Origin: Vulcanimicrobiota bacterium | GTDB lineage: Bacteria; Vulcanimicrobiota; Vulcanimicrobiia; Vulcanimicrobiales; Vulcanimicrobiaceae | DNA length: 64,000 nt | Reading direction: 5' to 3' | Assembly: GCA_963723515.1 (NCBI GenBank) | Contig: CAVRQT010000003.1 | Location: 608,001 to 672,000 of the forward strand | Shown here: positions 23,075 through 52,064 of the stretch, in pieces | Layout: the number at the start of each line of letters is the position of its first letter | How positions within the stretch are numbered: position 1 is the first letter of the stretch | Notes under the pieces: model-generated | The model's input: the letters and a program-made list of their open reading frames with translations, nothing else | Databases searched by the model: none | Told to the model about the DNA's origin: nothing | Translations under genes and position numbers: made by a program

Positions 23075-23180
<106 letters not shown>

Positions 23181-28200: not shown

Positions 28201-28277
28201 TGGTCGGGGCGAGAGGACTTGAACCTCCGACTTCTGCGTCCCAAACGCAGCGCTCTACCAAGCTGAGCTACGCCCCG
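28201..28277 (-). tRNA. tRNA-Pro(TGG)
   Basis: Reverse complement CGGGGCGTAGCTCAGCTTGGTAGAGC..CTGCG-TTTGGGA-CGCAG..GTTCAAGTC..CGCCCCGACCA. Confidence 0.97.
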
Positions 28278-28702
28278 GCTCTGTACCAACCCCGTTCCCT
28301 TGCTGTCTTGCGACGATGACAATTTGCGCAGCGGACTTCACATTTTAGCATCTCTCTTCTTAACTGCGAAAGGGTGCAGCCGCTCCACGCTAAGAGGCAG
28401 ACCTCAGTAAGCTTAGTCCCGCTCACGTGATCGAATTCCAAAACGATTGGGTCACGTTCTCCGCAGTCGACGCACGGCGATTTCAACAAGTACTGAAGCA
28501 TGTACTCGCGATTCCTCTTAACGCATGACCGTTTGTTTCGATATCGCCTAATGTTATGTTCCGTGCTATGGCGACGGTAATGAGCCTTGCAATAAGCACT
28601 TTGACACTTTTTGCAATACGATGTCGGTGCTCCCGTAGCCAAGTCTCGGCAGTAAAATTCGTTTCGAGGCTTGCCTTCTTGACAGCGTGGGCATCGCTTC
28701 AT
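28268..28702 (-). CDS. HNH (His-Me finger) endonuclease-like protein with N-terminal zinc finger
   Basis: CPRC..CKKC N-terminal Zn finger; PCVDCG..DPIVLEFDH..KCEVRCANCHRRKT. Confidence 0.8.
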   Translation of the reverse strand: MKRCPRCQEGKPRNEFYCRDLATGAPTSYCKKCQSAYCKAHYRRHSTEHNIRRYRNKRSCVKRNREYMLQYLLKSPCVDCGERDPIVLEFDHVSGTKLTEVCLLAWSGCTLSQLRREMLKCEVRCANCHRRKTARERGWYRAGA

Positions 28703-28753
28703 GTATCAATTGAACAAAAGAGGTGTGCCATACGCTTGGCATTCTAAAACGAA

Positions 28754-29435
28754 TTACCAGAGAAACGGAACAATGCGATAACGAACGCGATAAGTATAAT
28801 CGTTGTAACCATCGAGTTCGCGTATCAAAAGCCGTTCTTCAATGGCGATCCGCACCATGAGTGACGCAATCGGAATAATCGCGAACAACGCAGCCGCGTA
28901 AGACCCCAGCCATAACGGGAGTCCAATAATTAGGAGCGCGCCGCCCGCGTAAATTGGATGGCGAACGATGCCGTAAGCCCCCGTATCGACGACCGTTTGA
29001 TGTCGTTCTTCTTGATGCCTGACGACTGCCGCGGCAAATGCGTTTTCGCGCAAACCAGCCCACGCGATCGACCAGCCGATAAAGAACAGCACGAGGCCCA
29101 GAACTTGGATATGAATCGGCGGCGTGGACATAAGGTGCAGACGAAAGATGTCGAGCGCCGCAAACACGACCATCCCGTAGAAAGTCAGAATCAAAATCGC
29201 AAGGACGACTTTATCTGAGAGCGGCTGTCCCCGCTGAAAAGGCGGCTTCAAACGTTCTCGAAGCAGATCCATGCCGTCGTGCGAAAGATCGACAATGCTC
29301 AATACGGTGCCGATCGAGATAGAGTCCTAAAATAATCCAAGCGCTCGGCCAGTTCAGCGTGCCGGCCGGCACGAACAGCAGCGCGGCGAAGATGCCGACG
29401 CTTGCCACGGTGCTAACGATTAACCGAAGAGTCAT
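28754..29435 (-). CDS. Isoprenylcysteine carboxylmethyltransferase (ICMT/PEMT) family membrane protein; frameshift near 29310
   Basis: LFVPAGTLNWP.AW, LLRERL, ENAFAA, VVDTGAYGIVRHPIY, RIAIEE, YRIVPFLW. Confidence 0.85.
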
Positions 29436-29493
29436 CGAAAGATGTGCTGAAGGGCGCGCTAGTGGTATTCTATTGTGCGGCGTCGCGCTCAAT

Positions 29494-29566
<73 letters not shown>

Positions 29567-29582
29567 TAGATTTGCGGTCCGC

Positions 29583-29660
29583 GGTGACTGTAGCTCAGCC
29601 GGTTAGAGCGTCGGCCTGTGGAGTCGAAGGTCGCGGGTTCGATCCCCGTCAGTCACCCCA
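29583..29660 (+). tRNA. tRNA-His(GTG)
   Basis: G-1 plus GTGACTG/CAGTCAC stem, TCGGC-CTGTGGA-GTCGA anticodon arm, ends C-CCA. Confidence 0.96.
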
Positions 29661-29731
29661 ACAATTTGCGCGGCAGGGCCGTGTTTGAACCGGTGGAAGC
29701 AACGTGAGCGCTCGATGACATTCGGCGCCCG

Positions 29732-29804
29732 GCGCCTGTAGCTCAGTTGGTAGAGCAGCGGCCTTTTAAGCCGTTGGTCCTGGGTTCGAGTCCCAGCGGG
29801 CGTA
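29732..29804 (+). tRNA. tRNA-Lys(TTT)
   Basis: GCGGC-CTTTTAA-GCCGT anticodon arm, GGTTCGAGTCC. Confidence 0.95.
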
Positions 29805-29807
29805 CGT

Positions 29808-29882
<75 letters not shown>

Positions 29883-30020
29883 TGATTTTTAGAAGTGCCG
29901 TCAACGTGAATTGGCACGCCGAGACCACGGTTTACAGCTGTGGTCCGTCGGCATTTGCTTCGGCGACGTTGGAGTGTGCGCTAATGAAAAAAGGTAGCCG
30001 CATATAACGTTTTCCTTAAG

Positions 30021-31314
30021 ATGCAGCCGAAAGGCCGCGTCCTTCAATTTCAGGTGCAAGGTCCGGAAAACGGCAAACTGGTGCCCGTCCGCGCTTTAAT
30101 TTACGATCAGAGTGGGCAGCGTATTGCAATTACGGACGACAGCGGAGACGCAGTTGCGCGTTGAAGGAAGCGATGGGCGAAACGGTCGTTCTGCAAGCAA
30201 GAGCGCCGCATTGGCCCTCCGCAACTGGGTCTTACGTCGTCGGCGCCTCCGAAGCGGGAAGCAAACTTACCCGCAGCACGGATTACGTGAACTTCGTTCT
30301 CAACTCCGAGGAAAGCGCCGAGCAAGAGATTGCGCTCCAAATCATGGTGTTCGGCACGAAGGACGGAGGCCGCGTGCCGATCGAGCATACGCTGATCTAC
30401 GATGAGAGCGGACATTTTCTCACGAGCACCGACTCCCGTGGCCACGCAGCCGCGCTGGTCAAGGAGCCGTTTGGCGAAACGTTTCGCCTGAAGGCGGAAG
30501 CCCAACACTGGGGTTCGCAGACGCAAGCGTTGCTCGCACGATCGGAGACGCGCAACAGCTACGCTGGTCCTGTCGGCAGCAAATACTTGTATCAGCAGGT
30601 CAGGTTCACGCTGCCGGCGGCGACCAATGAAATCGGAGACCTGGTCGTTCAGGTCCTCAACAGAGACAACGACAAGCCGGTCTCGGGTGCGGCCGTTCGT
30701 CTCTATAAGCCGACCGGTTTTCCAGGCACGCTCGTTGGGGTTGAAAGTACGAATCAACAAGGCGAAGCGACCTTTGATGCGCGCCATGTCGAGCAGGCGC
30801 TGTCCGGACAAGAAGCCCGAGTCGGCGTGCAGCATGGCGGCTACTCGGAGGCGCTGCAAACGGTGGCCGGCTCCTTGACGACGGCGGAGTTGCCTCGTTA
30901 CGTCGTGTATCTTAAACCGAAAAACGAAAACACGAAGTGGAGCGGCACGTGGTACGACGGCCCGTATACGATGCAGGTGTCCGGCGGAACGGGATCGCTT
31001 GGCTATACGGCGCTGCGTTCTTCAGGCGTTGGAACGTGCTGCCCCTCGTCGATGAAAGCAGTGGTAATTGCCAGGTGATTGGCAGCAAGGCGATCTGTCA
31101 ATATCACGGGCATTACCATGACAGTGCGAAGGACGTCACCTATGGCGGCCATGCAACGCTCACGTATTCTGGAGAGTACATCCAGTACAGCTTCACGCAA
31201 GTTAGCGGATCGATTACGCTGTCGAGCGGTCAGCCTTGTCCGGCAATCGAACAATGCACGAGCATGCATCCGGGTGCAATATTTACCGGTTCCTGGACAC
31301 GTAAGAAACCGTAA
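30021..31314 (+). CDS. Repeat-containing beta-sandwich (surface-like) protein, apparently 5'-truncated; frameshifts near 30160 and 31045
   Basis: The segment LQFQVQG.ENGKLVPVRALIYDQSGQRIAITDDSG upstream of the listed ORF repeats its internal LQIMVFG.KDGGRVPIEHTLIYDESGHFLTSTDSRG; Cys-containing C-terminal part continues in another frame to TAA 31314. Confidence 0.55.
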
Positions 31315-31360
31315 GATCGCAGACGGTCCTCCCAGGGTTCCGCAAGCTCGCAACAGCAGC

Positions 31361-32107
31361 GTGTTTCCGAACCTGATAGCGGGAGCGCTGCTCTTATTTT
31401 GCATCGTCTCTAACAGCGAAGTAACAGGTGCAAGCCCCTCCCGACCAATCATCTACGTTGCGCTCGGTGATAGCATCACGTGGGGATTGGCTGCATCGAA
31501 GACCTGCCAGCCGCAGATTCCGATGCCGGTCCGAACCAGCGTGCTTTGACGCGACGTCCTTCCCGGCTGTCTTCGCTCGCGCGCTTCGGAGCAGCGGACG
31601 AAGCGTTAGGGTTCAAAACGTGGCGATTTCAGGGGCGCGTGTAGGCTGGATGTTGCCGACGAGCTGCCGCAGGTCGCAAAAAACGCAAACCTGATCACGC
31701 TTTTTGTCGGCGCGAACGATTTCTCCGACATCGCGTTTCATGGTGCACGGTGGAAGATTTTGAACGCCAGTATACGGCGCTCGTCGCCTATCTCGTCGCA
31801 CAGTATCCACGGGCGCGAATCATCTTGGCGAACGTGCCGAATATCGGTTACTTACCGTGTTGCGCGGACATACGGAATGGGACACAAGAAACGTGGCACG
31901 CGGGCAACGCCTTCATCGATTCGTTTGCGGCTGGGGTTACGGTAGCAGATCTGGTTTGCGATCCGACGCTCTACCAGCCTGCGATGTTTCCCATGCAAGG
32001 AAACATCCACCCCGGTGACCTAGGGCATGCTCGCATCGCAGCCGATATTGCTGGATGCGCTGCGGCACCGCCGAAAACCGGCGGCTTCTTGTCCGCCCTA
32101 TTTCTAG
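31361..32107 (+). CDS. SGNH/GDSL hydrolase, secreted; several frameshifts
   Basis: YVALGDSIT, NVAISGA, LFVGAND and IHP..GHARIA blocks in successive frames. Confidence 0.75.
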
Positions 32108-33171
32108 CTCGTCTTCTCCGTCTGAAGCAACGCCTTCTTGCGTTCAACGCCCCACCGGTAATCCGCAACGTCTCCGTCCGCGCGAATCACGCGGTGACAA
32201 GGAATCACCAGGGCGACTCTATTGCTTGCGCACGCCTTTGCGACGGCGCGCGATGCCCCGGGACGTCCAATGAACGCGGCCACTTCATTATATGAACGCG
32301 TTTCTCCATACGGAATTTCCTGAAGCGCCTGCCAAACGGAAGATTGAAATGGCGTGCTGTCCAGGTCGAGAGGGACACGATCGCCGTGCGTGCCGCGAAG
32401 TTGCCGTTGAACCGCTTTTTCGGCAGCGTCGAGATGGGATTTCGTTTCAGCATCTAGACGATCAGAATACTGAACAAGCGTGGCATTGGGATATTCCGCG
32501 CGGAGATCCGCTTCAAGCCGTTTGGCATCGTCACCAAAGTAGATGGCGGCAACGCCGCGAGTGGTAGCCGCGAGCAACGCGAAACCAAGCGGCGTTTTCC
32601 TCGCGCGGAACGCGATGACTTTGCCGGCGCCGCGTCGTCTGTATTGTCCGGGCGTCATTCCAAGAGCTCGTAGCGCGTCCGGATAGGCCGCCCGTTCGTC
32701 GGGGTAACCCGCGTTGATCGATGCGCTTGCAACGCTTTCGTCTTTGCGAAGTCCCGCTTTTAAGCGTTCCGCGCGGCGTGTCGCGACGTACACGCGCGGC
32801 GAAACGCCGACGTGCCGCTTAAACAGACGCTGCAGATAAAACGGACTTAGGGCAACGTATTTCGCGAGATCCGTCAACGTTACGCGCTCGCCAAGGCGGC
32901 TTTCGAGTAAGTCGAGCGCCGAACGAACGATTCGTTCAGAATCTTGTCCGCTAACCGGACGGCACTTTGCGCACTCGCGAAATCCGCCATCGGTCGCGGC
33001 TTCGGGTGAAGCAAAGAAGAGCACGTTTTCTTTGCGGGGGCGACGCGCACTGCACGACGGTTTGCAGTAGACGCCCGTCGTCTTGACGCCGTACACAAAG
33101 GCCTGGTCGAACCGGTCGTCGCGCCGCACGACGGCGCTCCAACGGCGTCGATCCGAAAGCTGCTCGCTCAT
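32104..33171 (-). CDS. ada: Bifunctional Ada transcriptional activator / O6-methylguanine-DNA methyltransferase
   Basis: TTGVYCKPSC, FRECAKCRP, AraC-type HTH, IPCHRV active site. Confidence 0.95.
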   Translation of the reverse strand: MSEQLSDRRRWSAVVRRDDRFDQAFVYGVKTTGVYCKPSCSARRPRKENVLFFASPEAATDGGFRECAKCRPVSGQDSERIVRSALDLLESRLGERVTLTDLAKYVALSPFYLQRLFKRHVGVSPRVYVATRRAERLKAGLRKDESVASASINAGYPDERAAYPDALRALGMTPGQYRRRGAGKVIAFRARKTPLGFALLAATTRGVAAIYFGDDAKRLEADLRAEYPNATLVQYSDRLDAETKSHLDAAEKAVQRQLRGTHGDRVPLDLDSTPFQSSVWQALQEIPYGETRSYNEVAAFIGRPGASRAVAKACASNRVALVIPCHRVIRADGDVADYRWGVERKKALLQTEKTS

Positions 33172-33284
33172 ATGCGCGGACCCCATCCCGCAAACGTGGT
33201 CCTCAAGTCGCGCAAAGCGCAACGCTCGTTCGGGAATTCGGTACTCATTCGCCCAACGCTAGGCTGCATATCCGTCTTGATCAT
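33168..33284 (-). CDS. Putative 38-aa upstream ORF coupled to ada (or a frameshifted Ada N-terminal extension)
   Basis: MIKTDMQPSVGRMSTEFPNERCALRDLRTTFAGWGPRI*; its TGA overlaps the ada ATG (ATGA). Confidence 0.4.
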   Translation of the reverse strand: MIKTDMQPSVGRMSTEFPNERCALRDLRTTFAGWGPRI

Positions 33285-33290
33285 GCTCCT

Positions 33291-33341
33291 ACTCTAGAGC
33301 GTTAGGAGCAGAGCGTCCATCCAAAAAGTTGCGCTCTAATT
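33291..33341 (-). promoter_or_regulatory. Ada box and -10 element of the ada promoter
   Basis: Minus strand AAT-TAGAGC-GCAA (33341-33329) fits AAT-N6-GCAA; TAGAGT at 33296-33291. Confidence 0.75.
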
Positions 33342-33560
33342 CGTTGGGCAAGGCTCCATGCCAAGGCTGGTCAGTTCGATGTCGCTGTAGCGAAAATTCG
33401 TTGATTCGAGTGGCCTGCGATCATCGTTCGAAACGCGATTTCGAATGTCAGCGAGCATCTGCTCCGCGTAACGCTTTTCGTATGGGCCGAGTTCGAGGGC
33501 GTCGCCCGCGAGCGTGCGGCCGACGATGATCCAGCGAGAATCGCTCCCGAGGTCTCTCAT
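33336..33560 (-). CDS. Small hypothetical protein (74 aa)
   Basis: ORF only, no recognisable motif. Confidence 0.35.
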   Translation of the reverse strand: MRDLGSDSRWIIVGRTLAGDALELGPYEKRYAEQMLADIRNRVSNDDRRPLESTNFRYSDIELTSLGMEPCPTN

Positions 33561-33676
33561 GGCTACGACCAGAGTACCACTCCCGCGCTACAGGAATCCC
33601 GGCAAAACCGTCTTATAATCGGCGACTTGGGCAGGCCCGCCACTAAAATCGCGGCGTAAAGGTTGGACAACCGGGA

Positions 33677-33758
33677 GGGCAAGTGGCGGAACTGGCAGAC
33701 GCGCTGGATTTAGGTTCCAGTGGGGTAACCCATCAGAGTTCGAGTCTCTGCTTGCCCA
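33677..33758 (+). tRNA. tRNA-Leu(TAG)
   Basis: GGGCAAG/CTTGCCC stem, CTGGA-TTTAGGT-TCCAG anticodon arm, variable arm. Confidence 0.95.
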
Positions 33759-33776
33759 TTGGCGCGCCGTCTCGAT

Positions 33777-33848
33777 GCGGAAGTAGCTCAGTGGTAGAGC
33801 ATCGCCTTGCCAAGGCGAGGGTCGCGAGTTCGAATCTCGTCTTCCGCT
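33777..33848 (+). tRNA. tRNA-Gly(GCC)
   Basis: GCGGAAG/CTTCCGC stem, TCGCC-TTGCCAA-GGCGA anticodon arm. Confidence 0.96.
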
Positions 33849-47517: not shown

Positions 47518-48603
47518 ATGTGGGAACCGTTTACTGAGGGTGCGCGGCGCGCGATTGTCCTCGCGCAAGAGGCGGCGGCCAAATACGGCGGCCGCTGCAT
47601 CGATACGCAGCACATCGTCATGGGGCTGCTCGAAATCGACGAAGGGCCACTGCTGCCGCTCTTCGAGCAGCGCGATCTCTCGATTGACGCCTACCGCGAA
47701 AAGCTGATCGGTGATTCGCATGAAGCGTCTTCCAATGATGAGGAATTCGCCTTCGCGCCGGACGCGAAGCGTTTGATCGAAGCCGCTTTTGAATGCGCGC
47801 GCGAATGGGGAATGGATTACATTTCAGCCGAGCATCTCGTCGGGGCGGTCGAGCGCGTCCCCAAGAGTAACGCAGCGCAGTATCTGCGCGAACTAGGATT
47901 CGATCTTGCGCAGATCGGTGCGTCGATGCGCGTCCAAGCGCTAGCCTCGCGCCGCTCCACTCCATCACGACTCCGCGCACACGCCCCTGCAGCACCGAAT
48001 CTTCCCGAACTGAGCGAAGAGAACGTCGGGGACGATCCGATTGCATTACTGCAGCGCTGGCTGATGGACGCCGGTGCAGCAGAAGTGACGGAGCCGACCG
48101 CGATGGCGCTTTCAACGGTCGACGACAACGGACAAGCCAGCTCGCGTATGGTGCTGCTCCGCGGGCTCGACGAACGCGGCCTCGTATTTTACACGCATTA
48201 CTTGAGCCGCAAAGGCGGCGAACTCGCGCGCAATAATCGTGCGGCGCTGCTCTTTTGGTGGGGCAACTTGCGCCGTCAGGTGCGGATCGAGGGGCTCGTC
48301 GAGTCGATCAGCGACGAAGAATCAGATGCATATTTTGCGTCGCGACCTCGCGAACATCAGCTCTCCACATGGGCCTCGGATCAAAGCGAGCCGCTGGAAT
48401 CTCGCGCCGCGCTTGAAGCACGCGTTGAAGATTATCGTTCGCGTTTCGAAGGCGAAGCCGTTGCTCGTCCGCATTCTTGGGGCGGATATCGCCTGCAGCC
48501 GCAGCGCATGGAGTTCTGGCAAGGACGCGACAATCGTCTGCACGATCGCTTGGCGTTCATAAAAGAAGGCACAACGTGGCGCCTGCAACGCCTGAGCCCA
48601 TGA
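47518..48603 (+). CDS. pdxH: Pyridoxamine 5'-phosphate oxidase fused to an N-terminal Clp repeat (ClpN) domain
   Basis: aa 1-140: MWEPFTEGARRAIVLAQE..TQHIVMGLL and FAPDAKRLIE..ISAEHL. aa ~165-361: SSRMVLL, SRKG, RQVRIEG, YFASRP, WGGY, EFWQGR..RLHDR, RLSP. Confidence 0.92.
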   Translation: MWEPFTEGARRAIVLAQEAAAKYGGRCIDTQHIVMGLLEIDEGPLLPLFEQRDLSIDAYREKLIGDSHEASSNDEEFAFAPDAKRLIEAAFECAREWGMDYISAEHLVGAVERVPKSNAAQYLRELGFDLAQIGASMRVQALASRRSTPSRLRAHAPAAPNLPELSEENVGDDPIALLQRWLMDAGAAEVTEPTAMALSTVDDNGQASSRMVLLRGLDERGLVFYTHYLSRKGGELARNNRAALLFWWGNLRRQVRIEGLVESISDEESDAYFASRPREHQLSTWASDQSEPLESRAALEARVEDYRSRFEGEAVARPHSWGGYRLQPQRMEFWQGRDNRLHDRLAFIKEGTTWRLQRLSP

Positions 48604-48641
48604 GGATCACCTCGCTCACGGTAGCCCTGCCTATTTAACCC

Positions 48642-48905
48642 CATCCGCGTCGCAACGTCTGGGGGTGCGGACATGACAATAAAAAAGAGTACTAAGGATG
48701 GATTGGCTTGAGACGGGGCGACGGTTCACTCGGGGGTGTATGGAGCACACAGGATGCACGTAGTGAGAAGACTTGTGCGGAATCAAGAGAGCAAATTTGC
48801 ACAAGTTGTAAATTTGGGAACGTCCGCCTGAGGGGACCGTCGCCTCGTAACAAGCCGTGAGCACGGGACTTAAACGAGCACTCGCCTAACGTAGCGACGC
48901 GGATG
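48642..48905 (+). ncRNA. Unassigned structured RNA / carB 5' leader (three nested stems)
   Basis: 48642-48668 pairs with 48878-48905, 48705-48736 with 48824-48856, 48771-48781 with 48796-48806; many mismatches become G-U pairs on the + strand. Confidence 0.65.
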
Positions 48906-51900
48906 CCCCAGCGTAGTGTACTCGTGATCGGCTCCGGCCCGATCGTTATCGGGCAGGCCGCGGAGTTTGACTACGCCGGAGTTCAAGCATGCCGTGCGCT
49001 ACGCGAGGCCGGACGGCGCGTCGTACTCGTCAATTCCAATCCCGCGACGATCATGACGGATCCCGAGATTGCCGACGCGGTATATCTCGAGCCGCTTACC
49101 AGTGCTTCGCTCGAGACGATCATCGAGCGTGAGATGCCCGACGCGTTGCTTCCGACGCTCGGCGGACAAACCGGTCTCAATCTTGCCGTTGAGCTGCACG
49201 AGAGCGGCGTTCTAGCGCGGTGCGGCGTCCAATTGCTCGGCACGCCGATCGCAACGATTCGCCTGGCTGAAGACCGCCGTCTATTCAAAGAGAAGATGAT
49301 CGCAATCGGCGAACCGGTGCCTCCGAGCGAAGTCGTTACCGAAGTTGAAGCCGGCGTCGCGTTCGCAAGACAAGTGGGCTATCCGCTTGTCGTGCGACCC
49401 GCGTACACCTTAGGCGGAACGGGCGGCGGCGTCGTGCATGACGAGCCAGAGTTGCGCGAAACGCTCGTCACCGGCCTCTCGCTGAGTTTGATCGGGCAAG
49501 TTCTCTTAGAGACCTCGCTCCTTGGCTGGAAAGAGATCGAGTACGAAGTGTTGCGCGACCGCGCGAACAACTGCATCGTGGTCTGCAACATGGAGAACGT
49601 CGATCCCGTCGGCGTGCACACCGGCGACTCGATCGTCGTGGCGCCATCGCAGACACTCTCCGATCAAGAGTATCAGCTGTTGCGCACGGCGAGCATCAAC
49701 GTCATCCGCGCGCTCAATGTCGAAGGCGGCTGCAACATTCAGTTTGCGTTGCATCCGGAGCGCAGCGAGTATCGGATCATCGAAGTGAATCCGCGAGTGT
49801 CACGCAGTTCTGCATTGGCTTCAAAAGCGACCGGATATCCGATCGCCAAGGTCGCAACGCGGATTGCGCTCGGAGAGACGCTCGACGAAATCCCAAATCC
49901 GGTTACTGGCGTAACAAAGGCCGCATACGAACCGACGCTCGACTACGTCGTCGTGAAGATCCCGCGCTGGCCGTTCGATAAGTTTCCGTTCGCCGACACC
50001 TCTCTGGGCACGCAGATGAAATCGACGGGCGAAGCAATGGGGATCGGCCGAACCTTCGGTGCGGCGCTGATCAAAGCGATGCGGGGTCTCGACCTCCGGC
50101 GGGAAGTCTTGACCGGTGACGGGCTGCGTCGCTGGAACACCGATGAGCTGATGTCGATCGTGAGCCGCCCAAATCATGAGCGGCTCTTTGCAATCGCGGA
50201 GTTGCTACGGCGAACTCCTCGCGAAACGCGCGCAGCGCAGGTCGATCTGATCGCCTCTCGCTCCAGCATCGATCGCTTTTGGCTGCATGAGATCAACGAG
50301 CTGGTCGATCTCGAAGCGCGCTTGGGCGATTCACCATCGAGCGCGGAACGTGCCGCAGCGCTTGAACTCGGTTACGCGGGAGCGAGTTCGGCGGACGGGA
50401 CCGCCGCATTTCGCATGGTGGACACTGCCGCCGCCGAGTTTCCCGCGAAGTCGCCGTACTACTATATCTCGCGTAACGAACAAGATGAGATGCGAGCGCC
50501 TCACAACGAGCCGGTCATCGTCGTCGGGAGCGGGCCGATTCGCATCGGTCAAGGCATCGAGTTCGACTACTCGTGCGTGCACGCCGCATGGGCCTTGCGC
50601 GATGCCGGGCGCGCGTCGGTCGTCATCAACAACAATCCAGAGACCGTCTCAACCGACTTTGACATCTCGGACGTGCTTGTCTTCGAGCCGCCAGGCGCCG
50701 ATGAAGTTGAGGCGGTCTATCACGCGACAAACGCGCGGGGCGTCATGCTCGCGTTCGGTGGGCAGACCGCGATCAATCTGGCGGATCAACTTGCCGCCCG
50801 CGGCGTTAGAATCGTGGGAAGCGATCGCCGCAGCCTTGATATGGCTGAGGACCGGCGAAAGTTCGACGAAGCGCTGCAGCGGCTCGGTGTTTCGCGGCCG
50901 CCCGGTCGTGCTGCGACGTCCTTCCGTGAAGCGCGTGCCATTGCGCGTGATTTAGGATTTCCGGTCTTGGTGCGTCCGTCGTACGTCTTAGGCGGCCGTG
51001 GAATGGAGATCGTCTACAATGAAGGACAGCTCGCGTCATACGCCGAGGCAGCGCCGCCGATTTTGCCCGAAGCACCGTTGCTCGTCGATCGCTATTTGCG
51101 TGGATTAGAAGCCGAGGTAGATGCGGTATTCGACGGCGAGGATATCCTGATTCCGGGAATCTTCGAACACATTGAGCGCGCCGGCATCCACTCGGGCGAT
51201 TCGATCAGCGTGTATCCAACGCAGACGCTTTCCGCCGATATGGAAGCGCGCCTCGCGGACTTGACGGCTTCAATCGCACGTGAACTGCAAATTCGCGGCC
51301 TGATCAACATCCAATTCGTCATCCACGAGGGCCGCCCGTACATTTTGGAGGCGAATCCGCGCGCGAGCCGCACCGTACCGATCATTTCAAAGGCAACGGG
51401 CGTCAACATCGTCGCGGCGGCGACGCGCATCGCACTCGGCGAGCGTCTTGCGGACATGGAATACGGAACCGGCTTGCGCCCGCGCGCCCCGTTCTGCGTC
51501 GTCAAAGTCCCCGTTTTCTCGTTCGCAAAAATGCGCGGCGTCGAGACGATCCTCGGTCCGGAGATGAAGTCCACGGGCGAAGCGCTCGGCATGGACTTCT
51601 CCTTTGCCGGCGCGCTGCGAAAAGGGTTCATCGGCGCCGGCATTCGTTTGCCCGAGCCCGGCGGACGCGTTCTCGCGACGGTCGCGGATCAATCGAAGGC
51701 CGATGCGATTCCGGTCTTGCGGCGCTACGCCGATCTCGGATTCGTGCTCTATGCAACGGAGGGGACTCAAGCGGCGCTCGCGCAGGCCGGTATCCGCGCG
51801 CAGCGCATCAATAAGATCGCCGGCGGTTCACCGCACACGCTGGACTTGATCACCTCGCGCGCCGTTGACTTGGTCATCAACGATGCGACTGGTCCGCGCG

Positions 51901-52064
51901 AGATCAACGACAGTTATCGGATCCGCCGCGCCGCCGTTGAGGCCAACATTGCGTGTTTGACGAGTCTTGACACTGCGAACGCGCTGGCGGATGCATTGGA
52001 AACCACTTCGGGTCCGCCGCGCACGCTGCAAGAGTATCGCGCGCTAGAACTCGCCGTCGGATGA
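48903..52064 (+). CDS. carB: Carbamoyl-phosphate synthase large subunit
   Basis: GSGPIVIGQAAEFDY, NSNPATIMTD, GVHTGDS, second ATP-grasp GQGIEFDY, MGS domain. Confidence 0.98.
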   Translation: MPQRSVLVIGSGPIVIGQAAEFDYAGVQACRALREAGRRVVLVNSNPATIMTDPEIADAVYLEPLTSASLETIIEREMPDALLPTLGGQTGLNLAVELHESGVLARCGVQLLGTPIATIRLAEDRRLFKEKMIAIGEPVPPSEVVTEVEAGVAFARQVGYPLVVRPAYTLGGTGGGVVHDEPELRETLVTGLSLSLIGQVLLETSLLGWKEIEYEVLRDRANNCIVVCNMENVDPVGVHTGDSIVVAPSQTLSDQEYQLLRTASINVIRALNVEGGCNIQFALHPERSEYRIIEVNPRVSRSSALASKATGYPIAKVATRIALGETLDEIPNPVTGVTKAAYEPTLDYVVVKIPRWPFDKFPFADTSLGTQMKSTGEAMGIGRTFGAALIKAMRGLDLRREVLTGDGLRRWNTDELMSIVSRPNHERLFAIAELLRRTPRETRAAQVDLIASRSSIDRFWLHEINELVDLEARLGDSPSSAERAAALELGYAGASSADGTAAFRMVDTAAAEFPAKSPYYYISRNEQDEMRAPHNEPVIVVGSGPIRIGQGIEFDYSCVHAAWALRDAGRASVVINNNPETVSTDFDISDVLVFEPPGADEVEAVYHATNARGVMLAFGGQTAINLADQLAARGVRIVGSDRRSLDMAEDRRKFDEALQRLGVSRPPGRAATSFREARAIARDLGFPVLVRPSYVLGGRGMEIVYNEGQLASYAEAAPPILPEAPLLVDRYLRGLEAEVDAVFDGEDILIPGIFEHIERAGIHSGDSISVYPTQTLSADMEARLADLTASIARELQIRGLINIQFVIHEGRPYILEANPRASRTVPIISKATGVNIVAAATRIALGERLADMEYGTGLRPRAPFCVVKVPVFSFAKMRGVETILGPEMKSTGEALGMDFSFAGALRKGFIGAGIRLPEPGGRVLATVADQSKADAIPVLRRYADLGFVLYATEGTQAALAQAGIRAQRINKIAGGSPHTLDLITSRAVDLVINDATGPREINDSYRIRRAAVEANIACLTSLDTANALADALETTSGPPRTLQEYRALELAVG

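Follow-up and report, generated by a model that had tools for sequence, protein, structure and literature searches.

Why should the gap between pdxH and carB in a Vulcanimicrobiaceae bacterium fold so that it hides the start codon of the gene behind it? The spacer is 299 nt long, and the RNA read from it is predicted to form a rod whose outer stem takes in the carB ATG. The initial annotation of the 64,000-nt stretch of DNA analysed here (the window, part of a 2.11-Mb assembly, G000, that is 88% complete) took this rod to be an undescribed translational switch for carbamoyl-phosphate synthesis, listing an oversized 6S RNA or a palindromic element as alternatives. We find that the core of the rod is one copy of a dispersed structured repeat, not a dedicated carB switch. 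The likely explanation, in our view, is that insertion of this REPIN- or MITE-like non-coding repeat enlarged the spacer and that any effect on carB would be local.

The physical description of the rod is borne out. Stretching from 48604 to 48920, the region folds on the plus strand with an energy of -128.2 kcal/mol compared to -103.9 +/- 5.1 kcal/mol in dinucleotide shuffles (z = -4.79, with none of 100 shuffles equal), whereas the minus strand reaches only -104.8 kcal/mol (z = -2.04, 4 of 100 shuffles equal), in line with the earlier observation that G-U pairs favour the plus strand. Both the minimum free energy (MFE) and the centroid structure of the plus strand hold the outer stem (48642-48668/48878-48905) and the middle stem, and an inverted-repeat search independently returns arms at 48642-48658/48889-48905 (17 nt, 94%) and 48705-48734/48827-48856 (30 nt, 80%). 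CarB can be aligned at its N-terminus with the CarB of relatives and, as annotated, its gene has no clear Shine-Dalgarno (SD) sequence. The annotation had also matched the rod to no known RNA family, and here, too, we agree: Rfam returns nothing in the gap at gathering thresholds, and at E<=10 the sole match between 48500 and 49000 is a meaningless snoRNA (16 bits, minus strand). Extending the search to the window, the paralogous loci described below and seven loci of the type found in a related genome (G005) yielded only tRNA and SRP elsewhere, along with sub-threshold miRNA-hairpin and snoRNA noise. One detail of the fold did not hold up. The two octamers proposed as an alternative pairing, GCTCACGG and CCGTGAGC, are present, yet neither occurs in the orthologous sequence of the congener G001, and chance alone should supply about 0.7 such 8-mer pairs in 300 nt.

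Table 1. Features of the pdxH-carB region in window coordinates.
Feature	Position	Strand	Evidence
pdxH (pyridoxamine 5'-phosphate oxidase, N-terminal Clp_N domain)	47518..48603	+	ORF; PNPOx_N 6.3e-27, PNP_phzG_C 7.2e-19, Clp_N 1.8e-12 (Pfam)
Outer stem, 5' arm (locus-specific)	48642..48668	+	Native carB leader plus ATG in inverted copy; both MFE and centroid pair it with 48878-48905
Purine/A-rich unpaired spacer between outer stem and repeat element	48669..48704	+	Unpaired in fold
Repeat element proper	48708..48853	+	Covariance model R1, 108.2 bits (G000:C3:656708-656853) vs 23.7 on reverse strand; aligns with paralogous and metagenomic copies
Most conserved 5' motif of the window's subtype, TTCACTCGGGGGYGTAYGGAGC	48725..48746	+	Three exact copies in genome, none for reversed control; on four metagenome contigs
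Conserved 3' motif ACGTCCSCC.GAGGGGA	48820..48836	+	Pairs with 5' motif to form P2; six-copy alignment, pair counts
Native carB upstream region: ACGGGACTT, then TAACGT (48887-48892) 10 nt before ATG	48863..48902	+	Motif found in relatives without the element
Outer stem, 3' arm, including carB start codon (48903-48905)	48878..48905	+	Fold; inverted-repeat search; pairing probability
carB (carbamoyl-phosphate synthase large subunit)	48903..52064	+	CPSase_L_D2 1.2e-115, CPSase_L_D1 5.7e-87, MGS 1e-16 (Pfam)

Is the rod unique to this locus? Searching the gap against its own assembly with BLAST turns up two more loci with partial similarity to the middle stem on its 5' side. Both loci contain the same 22-nt motif along with the matching 3' motif, and at both the flanking stems are spelled differently but remain complementary. 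One copy follows a cyclophilin-type gene (read by eye), the other lies beside a tRNA. The covariance model R1 finds these three loci and no others in G000, with scores of 108.7, 108.2 and 91.5 bits compared to 24-37 bits on the reverse strands. One of the metagenome copies of the 5' motif is disrupted by another repeat; neither an exact copy of the motif nor one with up to two mismatches occurs in 40 relatives or in a genome-contig collection. Many dispersed copies, which the annotation had named as the observation that would speak for a repeat element, are therefore what we see, and of its two alternatives it is the palindromic element that the evidence favours. The same holds for the apical loop AATCAAGAGAGC, which had been likened to a PyrR site: its GGAATCAAG portion appears again in copies whose neighbours are unrelated genes, making the loop a feature of the repeat family rather than a pyrimidine signal.

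The family consists of structured repeats of about 125-185 nt per unit, and copy number varies from zero to about 60 between related genomes. R1 has matches in 10 of 151 genomes of the taxonomic family, G000 included, with 15 matches in the complete genome G005; in a phylum-wide sample, it matches 3 of 71 genomes of this family and none of 79 genomes from 20 other families. Note that these tallies are underestimates and that the absence of an R1 match is a weak negative: G096, a congener of G005, has no R1 match although BLAST finds about 19 copies there. With one G005 copy and its flanks as the query we obtain 63 matches in G005 and 21 in G096 (flank and self-matches counted), corresponding to about 60 and about 19 matching pieces, and a 165-nt G005 copy finds matches in 47 of the 151 family genomes, belonging to 33 of 78 genera, when up to five candidates are scored per genome. 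The family tallies (R1, spacer and 165-nt query) include genomes flagged as unpublished (G157, G009, G058, G112, G125 and G068), and no conclusion hinges on these alone. As far as sampled, then, the repeats appear confined to this family, listed as Candidatus Eremiobacteraeota in public records. No such element is described in the portions of the literature on Eremiobacterota with repeats or noncoding RNA that our search covered, nor do 14-mers of the second repeat occur in the text searched, and judging from sequence we would class the family as a hairpin-type repeat that is undescribed as far as the literature searched.

At carB itself the element is a rarity. With the spacer as query, 25 relatives provide a single match, in G001, the only other genome of the genus, and no element is apparent when the regions upstream of carB in ten relatives are read. 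The pdxH-carB gap measures 57 nt in G007, without the element, and around 50 and 87 nt in G013 and G004 (extrapolated from match ends); in the remaining relatives, a gene other than pdxH precedes carB. In G001 the element follows pdxH on one contig (C13), which ends inside it. The rod's 3' portion is found ahead of carB on a second contig (C158), adjoining a different gene, a half-copy and a repeat of another kind; with a metagenome-assembled genome (MAG) of 230 contigs, this junction may be either a mis-join or a real rearrangement. A switch dedicated to carbamoyl-phosphate synthesis is hard to reconcile with a core that has three copies in G000 and dozens in relatives, and with an element that, among the family members examined, sits at carB only in G000 and its congener. 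The expectation for a cis-regulatory RNA is likewise disappointed, as the element is not conserved upstream of carB orthologues, and its paralogues and metagenome copies flank unrelated genes.

These patterns also bear on the more specific proposals that the rod is an oversized 6S RNA (RF00013) or a PyrR-type attenuator (RF00515). There are superficial likenesses: 6S RNA is similarly rod-like with internal loops and its slot is formally open, G000 having no Rfam 6S match anywhere (E<=0.01), the apical loop loosely resembles a PyrR site, and the modelled read-through RNA would hold the carB AUG in a stable helix, as start-codon-sequestering leaders do. However, neither family matches the gap even at E<=10. 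The element is multicopy and patchy, with three paralogous loci in G000 and dozens in related genomes, yet it is missing from most of the family, whereas 6S RNA is a conserved gene with few copies. Unlike a riboswitch or PyrR leader, it is not conserved with its gene, it occurs at several loci unrelated to pyrimidine genes with the supposed PyrR loop in place, and its apical 'sensor' differs between congeners. We regard both identities as extremely improbable.

What the copies share is a fold. An alignment of six intact copies (A3) contains 47 pairs with 90.8% of cells paired, and 12 of these pairs show double changes; shuffled alignments average 5.0 +/- 1.7, and none of 500 reaches 12. For the abundant subtype of G005, 32 distinct copies (A4) give an RNAalifold consensus of 63 pairs, arranged as a long closing helix, a three-way junction and two inner hairpins. 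Here, 97.3% of cells are paired, compared to 86.1 +/- 0.4% after shuffling and at most 49.2% with partners slid, and compensatory double changes are found at 40 of the 63 pairs (17.5 +/- 2.2 shuffled; again, none of 500 as high). The 32 copies are related, so that the shuffle figures should not be read as probabilities; the slid controls, which keep this relatedness, are equally clear. Covariation, whose absence would have told against the initial annotation, is strong across repeat copies, while conservation with carB is missing among the relatives examined other than G001. The window's copy is built from a closing helix (P1/P2), a conserved junction and a diverged apical module; its subtype has P1/P2 and the junction GGGGYGU...RCGUCCCC in common with that of G005 and differs in the apical module. 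There is no conserved ORF in the element, and indels among copies are not multiples of three. Perfect compensation and an almost invariant interior exceed what neutral decay would leave, an observation that sits uneasily with selfish DNA and could equally mark a functional RNA.

Could complementarity be maintained at the level of double-stranded DNA instead? Imagine that template switching or gene conversion at replication kept the arms of a palindrome complementary, and also copied the carB leader, with no selection on a single-stranded fold. Such a process would account for an outer stem that is an inverted duplication of native sequence, for the tandem and partial duplications around copies, which suggest replication slippage, and for compensation even among very recent copies of one genome. 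It would not account for the interior, where a three-way junction is asymmetric and its helices still covary (double changes at 8 of the 15 pairs of helix 2), nor for the strand preference. In a separate alignment of the same 32 copies we count 1881 Watson-Crick pairs, 73 G-U, 8 A-C and 50 others, an excess of G-U over A-C of about 9:1 on one strand, regardless of genomic orientation; many of the G-U pairs were passed down within subfamilies, yet the excess points the same way as the fold itself, which at the window's locus is better by 23 kcal/mol on the plus strand. A purely DNA-level origin thus strikes us as highly unlikely.

If single-stranded structure matters, the family might be a functional multicopy RNA, titrating a protein or acting in a guide-like manner. 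The loops AUGGAU (P5), AGGAUGG (P3) and ACAGGAUG (in the window's copy) would then be binding sites, for example for CsrA, whose sites GGA-containing loops of this kind may resemble. A CsrA sponge of the CsrB/RsmZ type would be an independently transcribed RNA with multiple GGA-loop hairpins that bind CsrA; GGA-containing loops occur in the copies and csrA genes in all five genomes tested. This scenario would make sense of covariation that extends from the closing stem to internal helices, of the 73:8 ratio of G-U to A-C and of a P5 loop that is almost invariant across the 32 copies. Against it, CsrA is also found in G007 and G010, genomes without a match to the element, and the copies lack a conserved upstream promoter, their 5' flanks being unrelated. 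A sigma-54-like reading of the 5' extension in one G005 subfamily was dropped, other subfamilies being without it. Truncated and internally duplicated copies, a copy number that swings between zero and about 60 in related genomes, and mixed orientation also argue against a functional RNA. Among 11 co-directional contexts, 4 copies (the window's included) are sense and 7 antisense, and no consistent sense bias relative to genes is evident, both on rough GC3-filtered ORF calls. All told, we consider a functional RNA family very unlikely.

The behaviour of the copies is easier to understand as that of a mobile element. All three G005 copies that were searched in G096 have empty orthologous sites, with gaps of 49, 41 and 62 nt in G096 corresponding to 345, 287 and 235 nt in G005, although the empty sites are too diverged to place exact element boundaries. 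Some G005 copies are only halves, others are interrupted by about 100 nt, and partial units also occur in tandem arrays that take in flanking DNA. Insertion sites in the window's subtype follow a pattern, in that six of seven copies start 14-40 nt beyond an ORF that ends in the same orientation (for the window's copy, 38 nt measured to the outer arm), the seventh lying between a divergent gene start and a tRNA. Note that such a preference for sites shortly 3' of genes would also fit a role in 3'-UTRs.

By what means the repeats might move is less apparent. The search for a mobiliser covered PF01797, PF07282 and PF00078. RAYT/Y1 transposases (PF01797, E<=0.001) are found in none of five genomes (G000, G005, G096, G007, G010), one of which, G005, is 97% complete on a single contig, while the same model is positive in 6 of 14 reference genomes used as a control. 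Reverse transcriptase (PF00078) is absent from the same five, and TnpB (PF07282) is found only in G010, which has no match to the element. In another genome, G084, two 170-nt copies that are 95% complementary flank 773 nt, a stretch that we considered as a mobiliser and rejected since it holds only ORFs with Glyoxalase and EthD domains and no transposase. Among 29 copies inspected, no recurrent flanking direct repeat marks a target-site duplication, and long terminal inverted repeats are missing, the best case being a 7-nt GGTAGCG/CGCTACC in one copy. The 5' end of the G005 subtype reads GTAG in 18 of 32 copies, GCAG in 8, GGAG in 3 and something else in 3; a 3' CTAC to match stands out in one copy, while others have degenerate forms (GCTAAC/GCTCAC). 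The window's subtype shows no evident tag of this kind, unless one accepts GGTAGCC at 48620. Self-palindromic REP units are not seen at element ends, the conserved part being the asymmetric interior. Copies show no clean strand switch along the G005 chromosome, where local GC skew in 3-kb flanks is too noisy for replichore assignment.

Does any described element behave similarly? By analogy, REPINs and GTAG-tagged REP dimers appear closest. Compensatory changes are common in REPIN hairpins according to Bertels & Rainey (2011, PMC3116915), and GTAG-tagged REP dimers with structured conserved spacers and additional flanking palindromes are described by Di Nocera et al. (2013, PMC3733652). Such elements resemble the present family in being dispersed extragenic repeats that form one long hairpin in single-stranded DNA or RNA, with compensatory changes and conserved structured spacers, in lying mostly 3' of genes or between convergent genes, in being lineage-restricted and long-lived and in sometimes having extra palindromic arms; a GTAG-like 5' end is seen in 18 of 32 G005-type copies. 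A RAYT is typically flanked by REP repeats in its genome, and REP units bear an unpaired GTAG (or CGTC) tag on their outer side. The present family differs in that no RAYT/Y1 is detected in a complete genome (G005) with about 60 matching pieces, and in being an asymmetric fold of 125-185 nt with the interior most conserved, rather than two palindromic REPs of 20-40 bp. Membership among REPINs would thus fall short on RAYT and be partial on GTAG.

Other small repeats offer partial parallels. ERIC/IRU and Correia (NEMIS/CREE) elements are bounded by defined inverted repeats and duplicate a TA target (listed in Table 1 of Delihas 2008, PMC2229807), and their transcribed hairpins can alter neighbouring mRNAs, as stated in the same review and by Snyder et al. 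(2009, PMC2649163). As portrayed there, they resemble the present family as non-coding repeats of 100-160 bp with long stem-loop transcripts, inserted beside genes. They may change the stability or processing of neighbouring mRNAs (via RNase E or RNase III) or supply promoters, and their insertion may affect an adjacent gene by accident. In contrast, the terminal inverted repeats and TA duplications are not found in our family, which belongs to a different phylum and has no sequence similarity to them. With MITEs it shares being multicopy, non-coding, shorter than 300 bp and present or absent at orthologous sites, but not, in the 29 copies inspected, defined terminal inverted repeats and a target-site duplication.

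We now return to the outer stem, which extends the hairpin beyond the repeat and into carB. The last ~40 nt 5' of carB are native sequence: G002, G008, G012 and G005 all have (C/G)GC(C/G)TAAYNT at 8-12 nt from the start codon, G007 and G027 have it in looser form, and ACGG(G)ACTT is common to the carB leaders of G000 and G002. All the relatives that share the leader motif do so without the element and without an SD sequence. Given that the 3' arm is native in relatives devoid of the element, the 5' arm must be the inverted copy, and it stops precisely at the ATG; in those relatives, nothing complementary to the leader is seen by eye further upstream. The conserved motif is probably the -10 region of carB's own promoter, which would give a very short leader. 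A consensus sigma-70 scan of the gap returned no promoter-like site, leaving conservation as the basis of this putative promoter; the plus strand has no terminator.

How well is the pairing kept in the congener? Among the distal 12 pairs of the outer stem, four have changed on both sides between G000 and G001 and still pair, including CAT/ATG, which has become CAC/GTG; one has changed on both sides and is broken, one is now a G-U pair and one base has become a bulge. The spacer between outer stem and repeat is weakly conserved (only 50% identity to G001 on the 5' side). Duplexes of native arms have energies of -44.5 kcal/mol (G000) and -34.4 kcal/mol (G001), and crossing the arms reduces this to -18.6 kcal/mol for the 5' arm of G000 with the 3' arm of G001, but only to -32.3 kcal/mol for the reverse combination, so that compensation in the outer stem is real but partial. 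The four compensatory changes do argue for upkeep of the start-codon lock, an observation that runs counter to a wholly incidental insertion. From these two genomes, the lock seems to be maintained, be it by selection or by palindrome homogenisation.

In models of read-through RNA the carB AUG is paired with a probability of 0.98-1.0, as the initial annotation had anticipated, compared to about 0.5-0.75 in a hypothetical short-leader mRNA. The start-codon lock is, on these models, a real structural feature of read-through transcripts, and an occluding effect on such transcripts is plausible. The idea of a switch, untenable in its dedicated form, might therefore retain a local meaning in an inverted leader copy that pairs with the start codon and whose pairing is kept in G001. 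Taken further, the rod could have been exapted to serve carB, which would be translated only once the stem is opened or cut (by temperature, a protein, RNase III or an apical ligand), or be insulated from pdxH read-through. The paired AUG, the maintained complementarity and the missing SD sequence are what such a lock would lead one to expect. But only two genomes of one genus carry it, and other relatives' carB has the same SD-less leader without a rod. The promoter-like motif 8-12 nt from the ATG implies a normal mRNA without the 5' arm, the -32.3 kcal/mol of the reverse cross betrays how partial the compensation is, and the apical module diverges strongly between G000 and G001 at this same locus, a misfit for a ligand pocket. 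Keeping in mind also that the G001 arms lie on different contigs, we judge an exapted lock to be unlikely.

We therefore favour insertion of the repeat, as follows. A spacer of ~50-90 nt, as in relatives, would have grown to 299 nt by insertion of one repeat in the common ancestor of G000 and G001. Each copy, read in the plus sense, folds with P1/P2 as a long closing helix, beyond which come a conserved junction and an apical module that varies, taking the shape of a three-way junction in the G005 subtype. Patchy copy number, presence and absence, truncated and tandem copies, either orientation and mostly short intergenic sites would reflect selfish behaviour of the REPIN/MITE type. We infer that the need to recognise a single-stranded intermediate (DNA or RNA) during copying is what keeps the fold on one strand. 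At carB, an inverted duplicate of the native leader accompanies the insertion and carries the hairpin as far as the start codon. In read-through transcripts from pdxH, the carB AUG would then be locked in a stem, while carB mRNA from the gene's own probable promoter, which lies in the 3' arm, would lack the 5' arm and escape the lock. In this account the repeat family, its covariation and strand asymmetry, the insertion polymorphism and the inverted leader copy are observed; the way the element moves, the carB promoter and any influence on expression are proposed. More speculatively, the family might represent a new kind of structured single-strand element with a covarying three-way-junction core, one that spreads without RAYT, IS200/605, TnpB or reverse transcriptase and acquires inverted leader copies as heritable antisense locks that are then kept by compensation; or it might be a multicopy RNA with GGA loops that titrates a protein such as CsrA. 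We rate this broader proposal as quite unlikely.

Under the preferred reading, insertion of a repeat, the locus carries a caution: a fold may be large, stable and strand-specific, hide a start codon and have no Rfam match, and nevertheless be one copy of a genomic repeat. Such repeats also break MAG assemblies, as the G001 contig that stops inside the element illustrates. Within Eremiobacteraeota, a group known from metagenomes only, they add an undescribed family of structured repeats whose covariation is unusually clean and for which we recognise no mobiliser, which bears on how REPIN-type elements persist and spread. The carB locus itself provides a natural two-genome case in which a repeat comes with an inverted copy of its neighbour's leader, a copy that has remained complementary through a change of start codon.

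The element, the dispersed hairpin repeat that lies between pdxH and carB in the window, also occurs in rearranged and partial form. One relative, G005, carries two tandem arrays built of partial element units: in one array, three 78-nt units, each made up of the element's 5' part together with 15 nt of flanking sequence, precede a full copy. Another copy in this genome is followed by two mini-units of about 70 nt, in which the P5 hairpin is joined straight to the 3' tail. At a further G005 copy (L054, the locus of L020), the 22-nt 3'-tail sequence reappears, inverted, some 190 nt upstream, forming a perfect outer inverted repeat that is missing from the empty site in the congeneric genome G096; the upstream sequence is probably the solo tail of another copy. 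Two 170-nt copies in a family genome, G084, lie in opposite orientation and are 95% complementary, and the 773 nt between them contain ORFs with Glyoxalase and EthD domains and no transposase. This is a composite-transposon-like arrangement in which the transposase is lacking.

Genome-wide, the window's own genome harbours a second repeat, distinct from the element near carB and far more abundant, for which a literature search returned no match. It forms a hairpin whose 7-bp stem (GTCAYRY/RYRTGAC) covaries and whose 13-nt loop, TTCGACAAGCTCA, is conserved; ACNGGGAC often comes after it. Allowing up to 4 mismatches, we found 153 matches in 2.1 Mb, part of them arranged as tandem arrays with a unit of about 57 nt. 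This TTCGAC hairpin repeat adjoins or lies within element copies at three loci (L002, L003 and L012), on contig C158 of the congener G001, and in 3' flanks in G005. The G001 assembly breaks within the element after pdxH (L022, contig C13), and on C158 (L043) carB is joined to an unrelated gene, an element half-copy and the TTCGAC hairpin repeat. The joined gene has no BLASTN match in the window's own genome, and the junction reflects either repeat-mediated mis-assembly or rearrangement.

Features and their coordinates
Feature	Location	Remark
Bacterial small SRP RNA and tRNA gene cluster	window 23080-23178, 28204-33848	ordinary
pdxH	window 47518-48603
carB upstream region	window 48863-48902	compared with L044-L053, from relatives
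Partial-unit arrays	L031:1258-1651; L028:1488-1800	G005
Copy with outer inverted repeat	L054:2090-2480	G005
Inverted pair	L189:2048-3160	G084
TTCGAC hairpin repeat, example sites	C2:74007 (L003:1468-1487); C2:82448; C3:373394-374218; C2:830350-830570	window's own genome, outside the window

Upstream of the window copy, the pdxH product has an unusual architecture, with an N-terminal Clp_N domain (residues ~90-133) fused to PNPOx domains. Downstream, carB in this family is preceded by no Shine-Dalgarno sequence and by a conserved TAAYNT-type motif 8-12 nt ahead of the start codon, sequence features which suggest that carB mRNAs are leaderless or near-leaderless.
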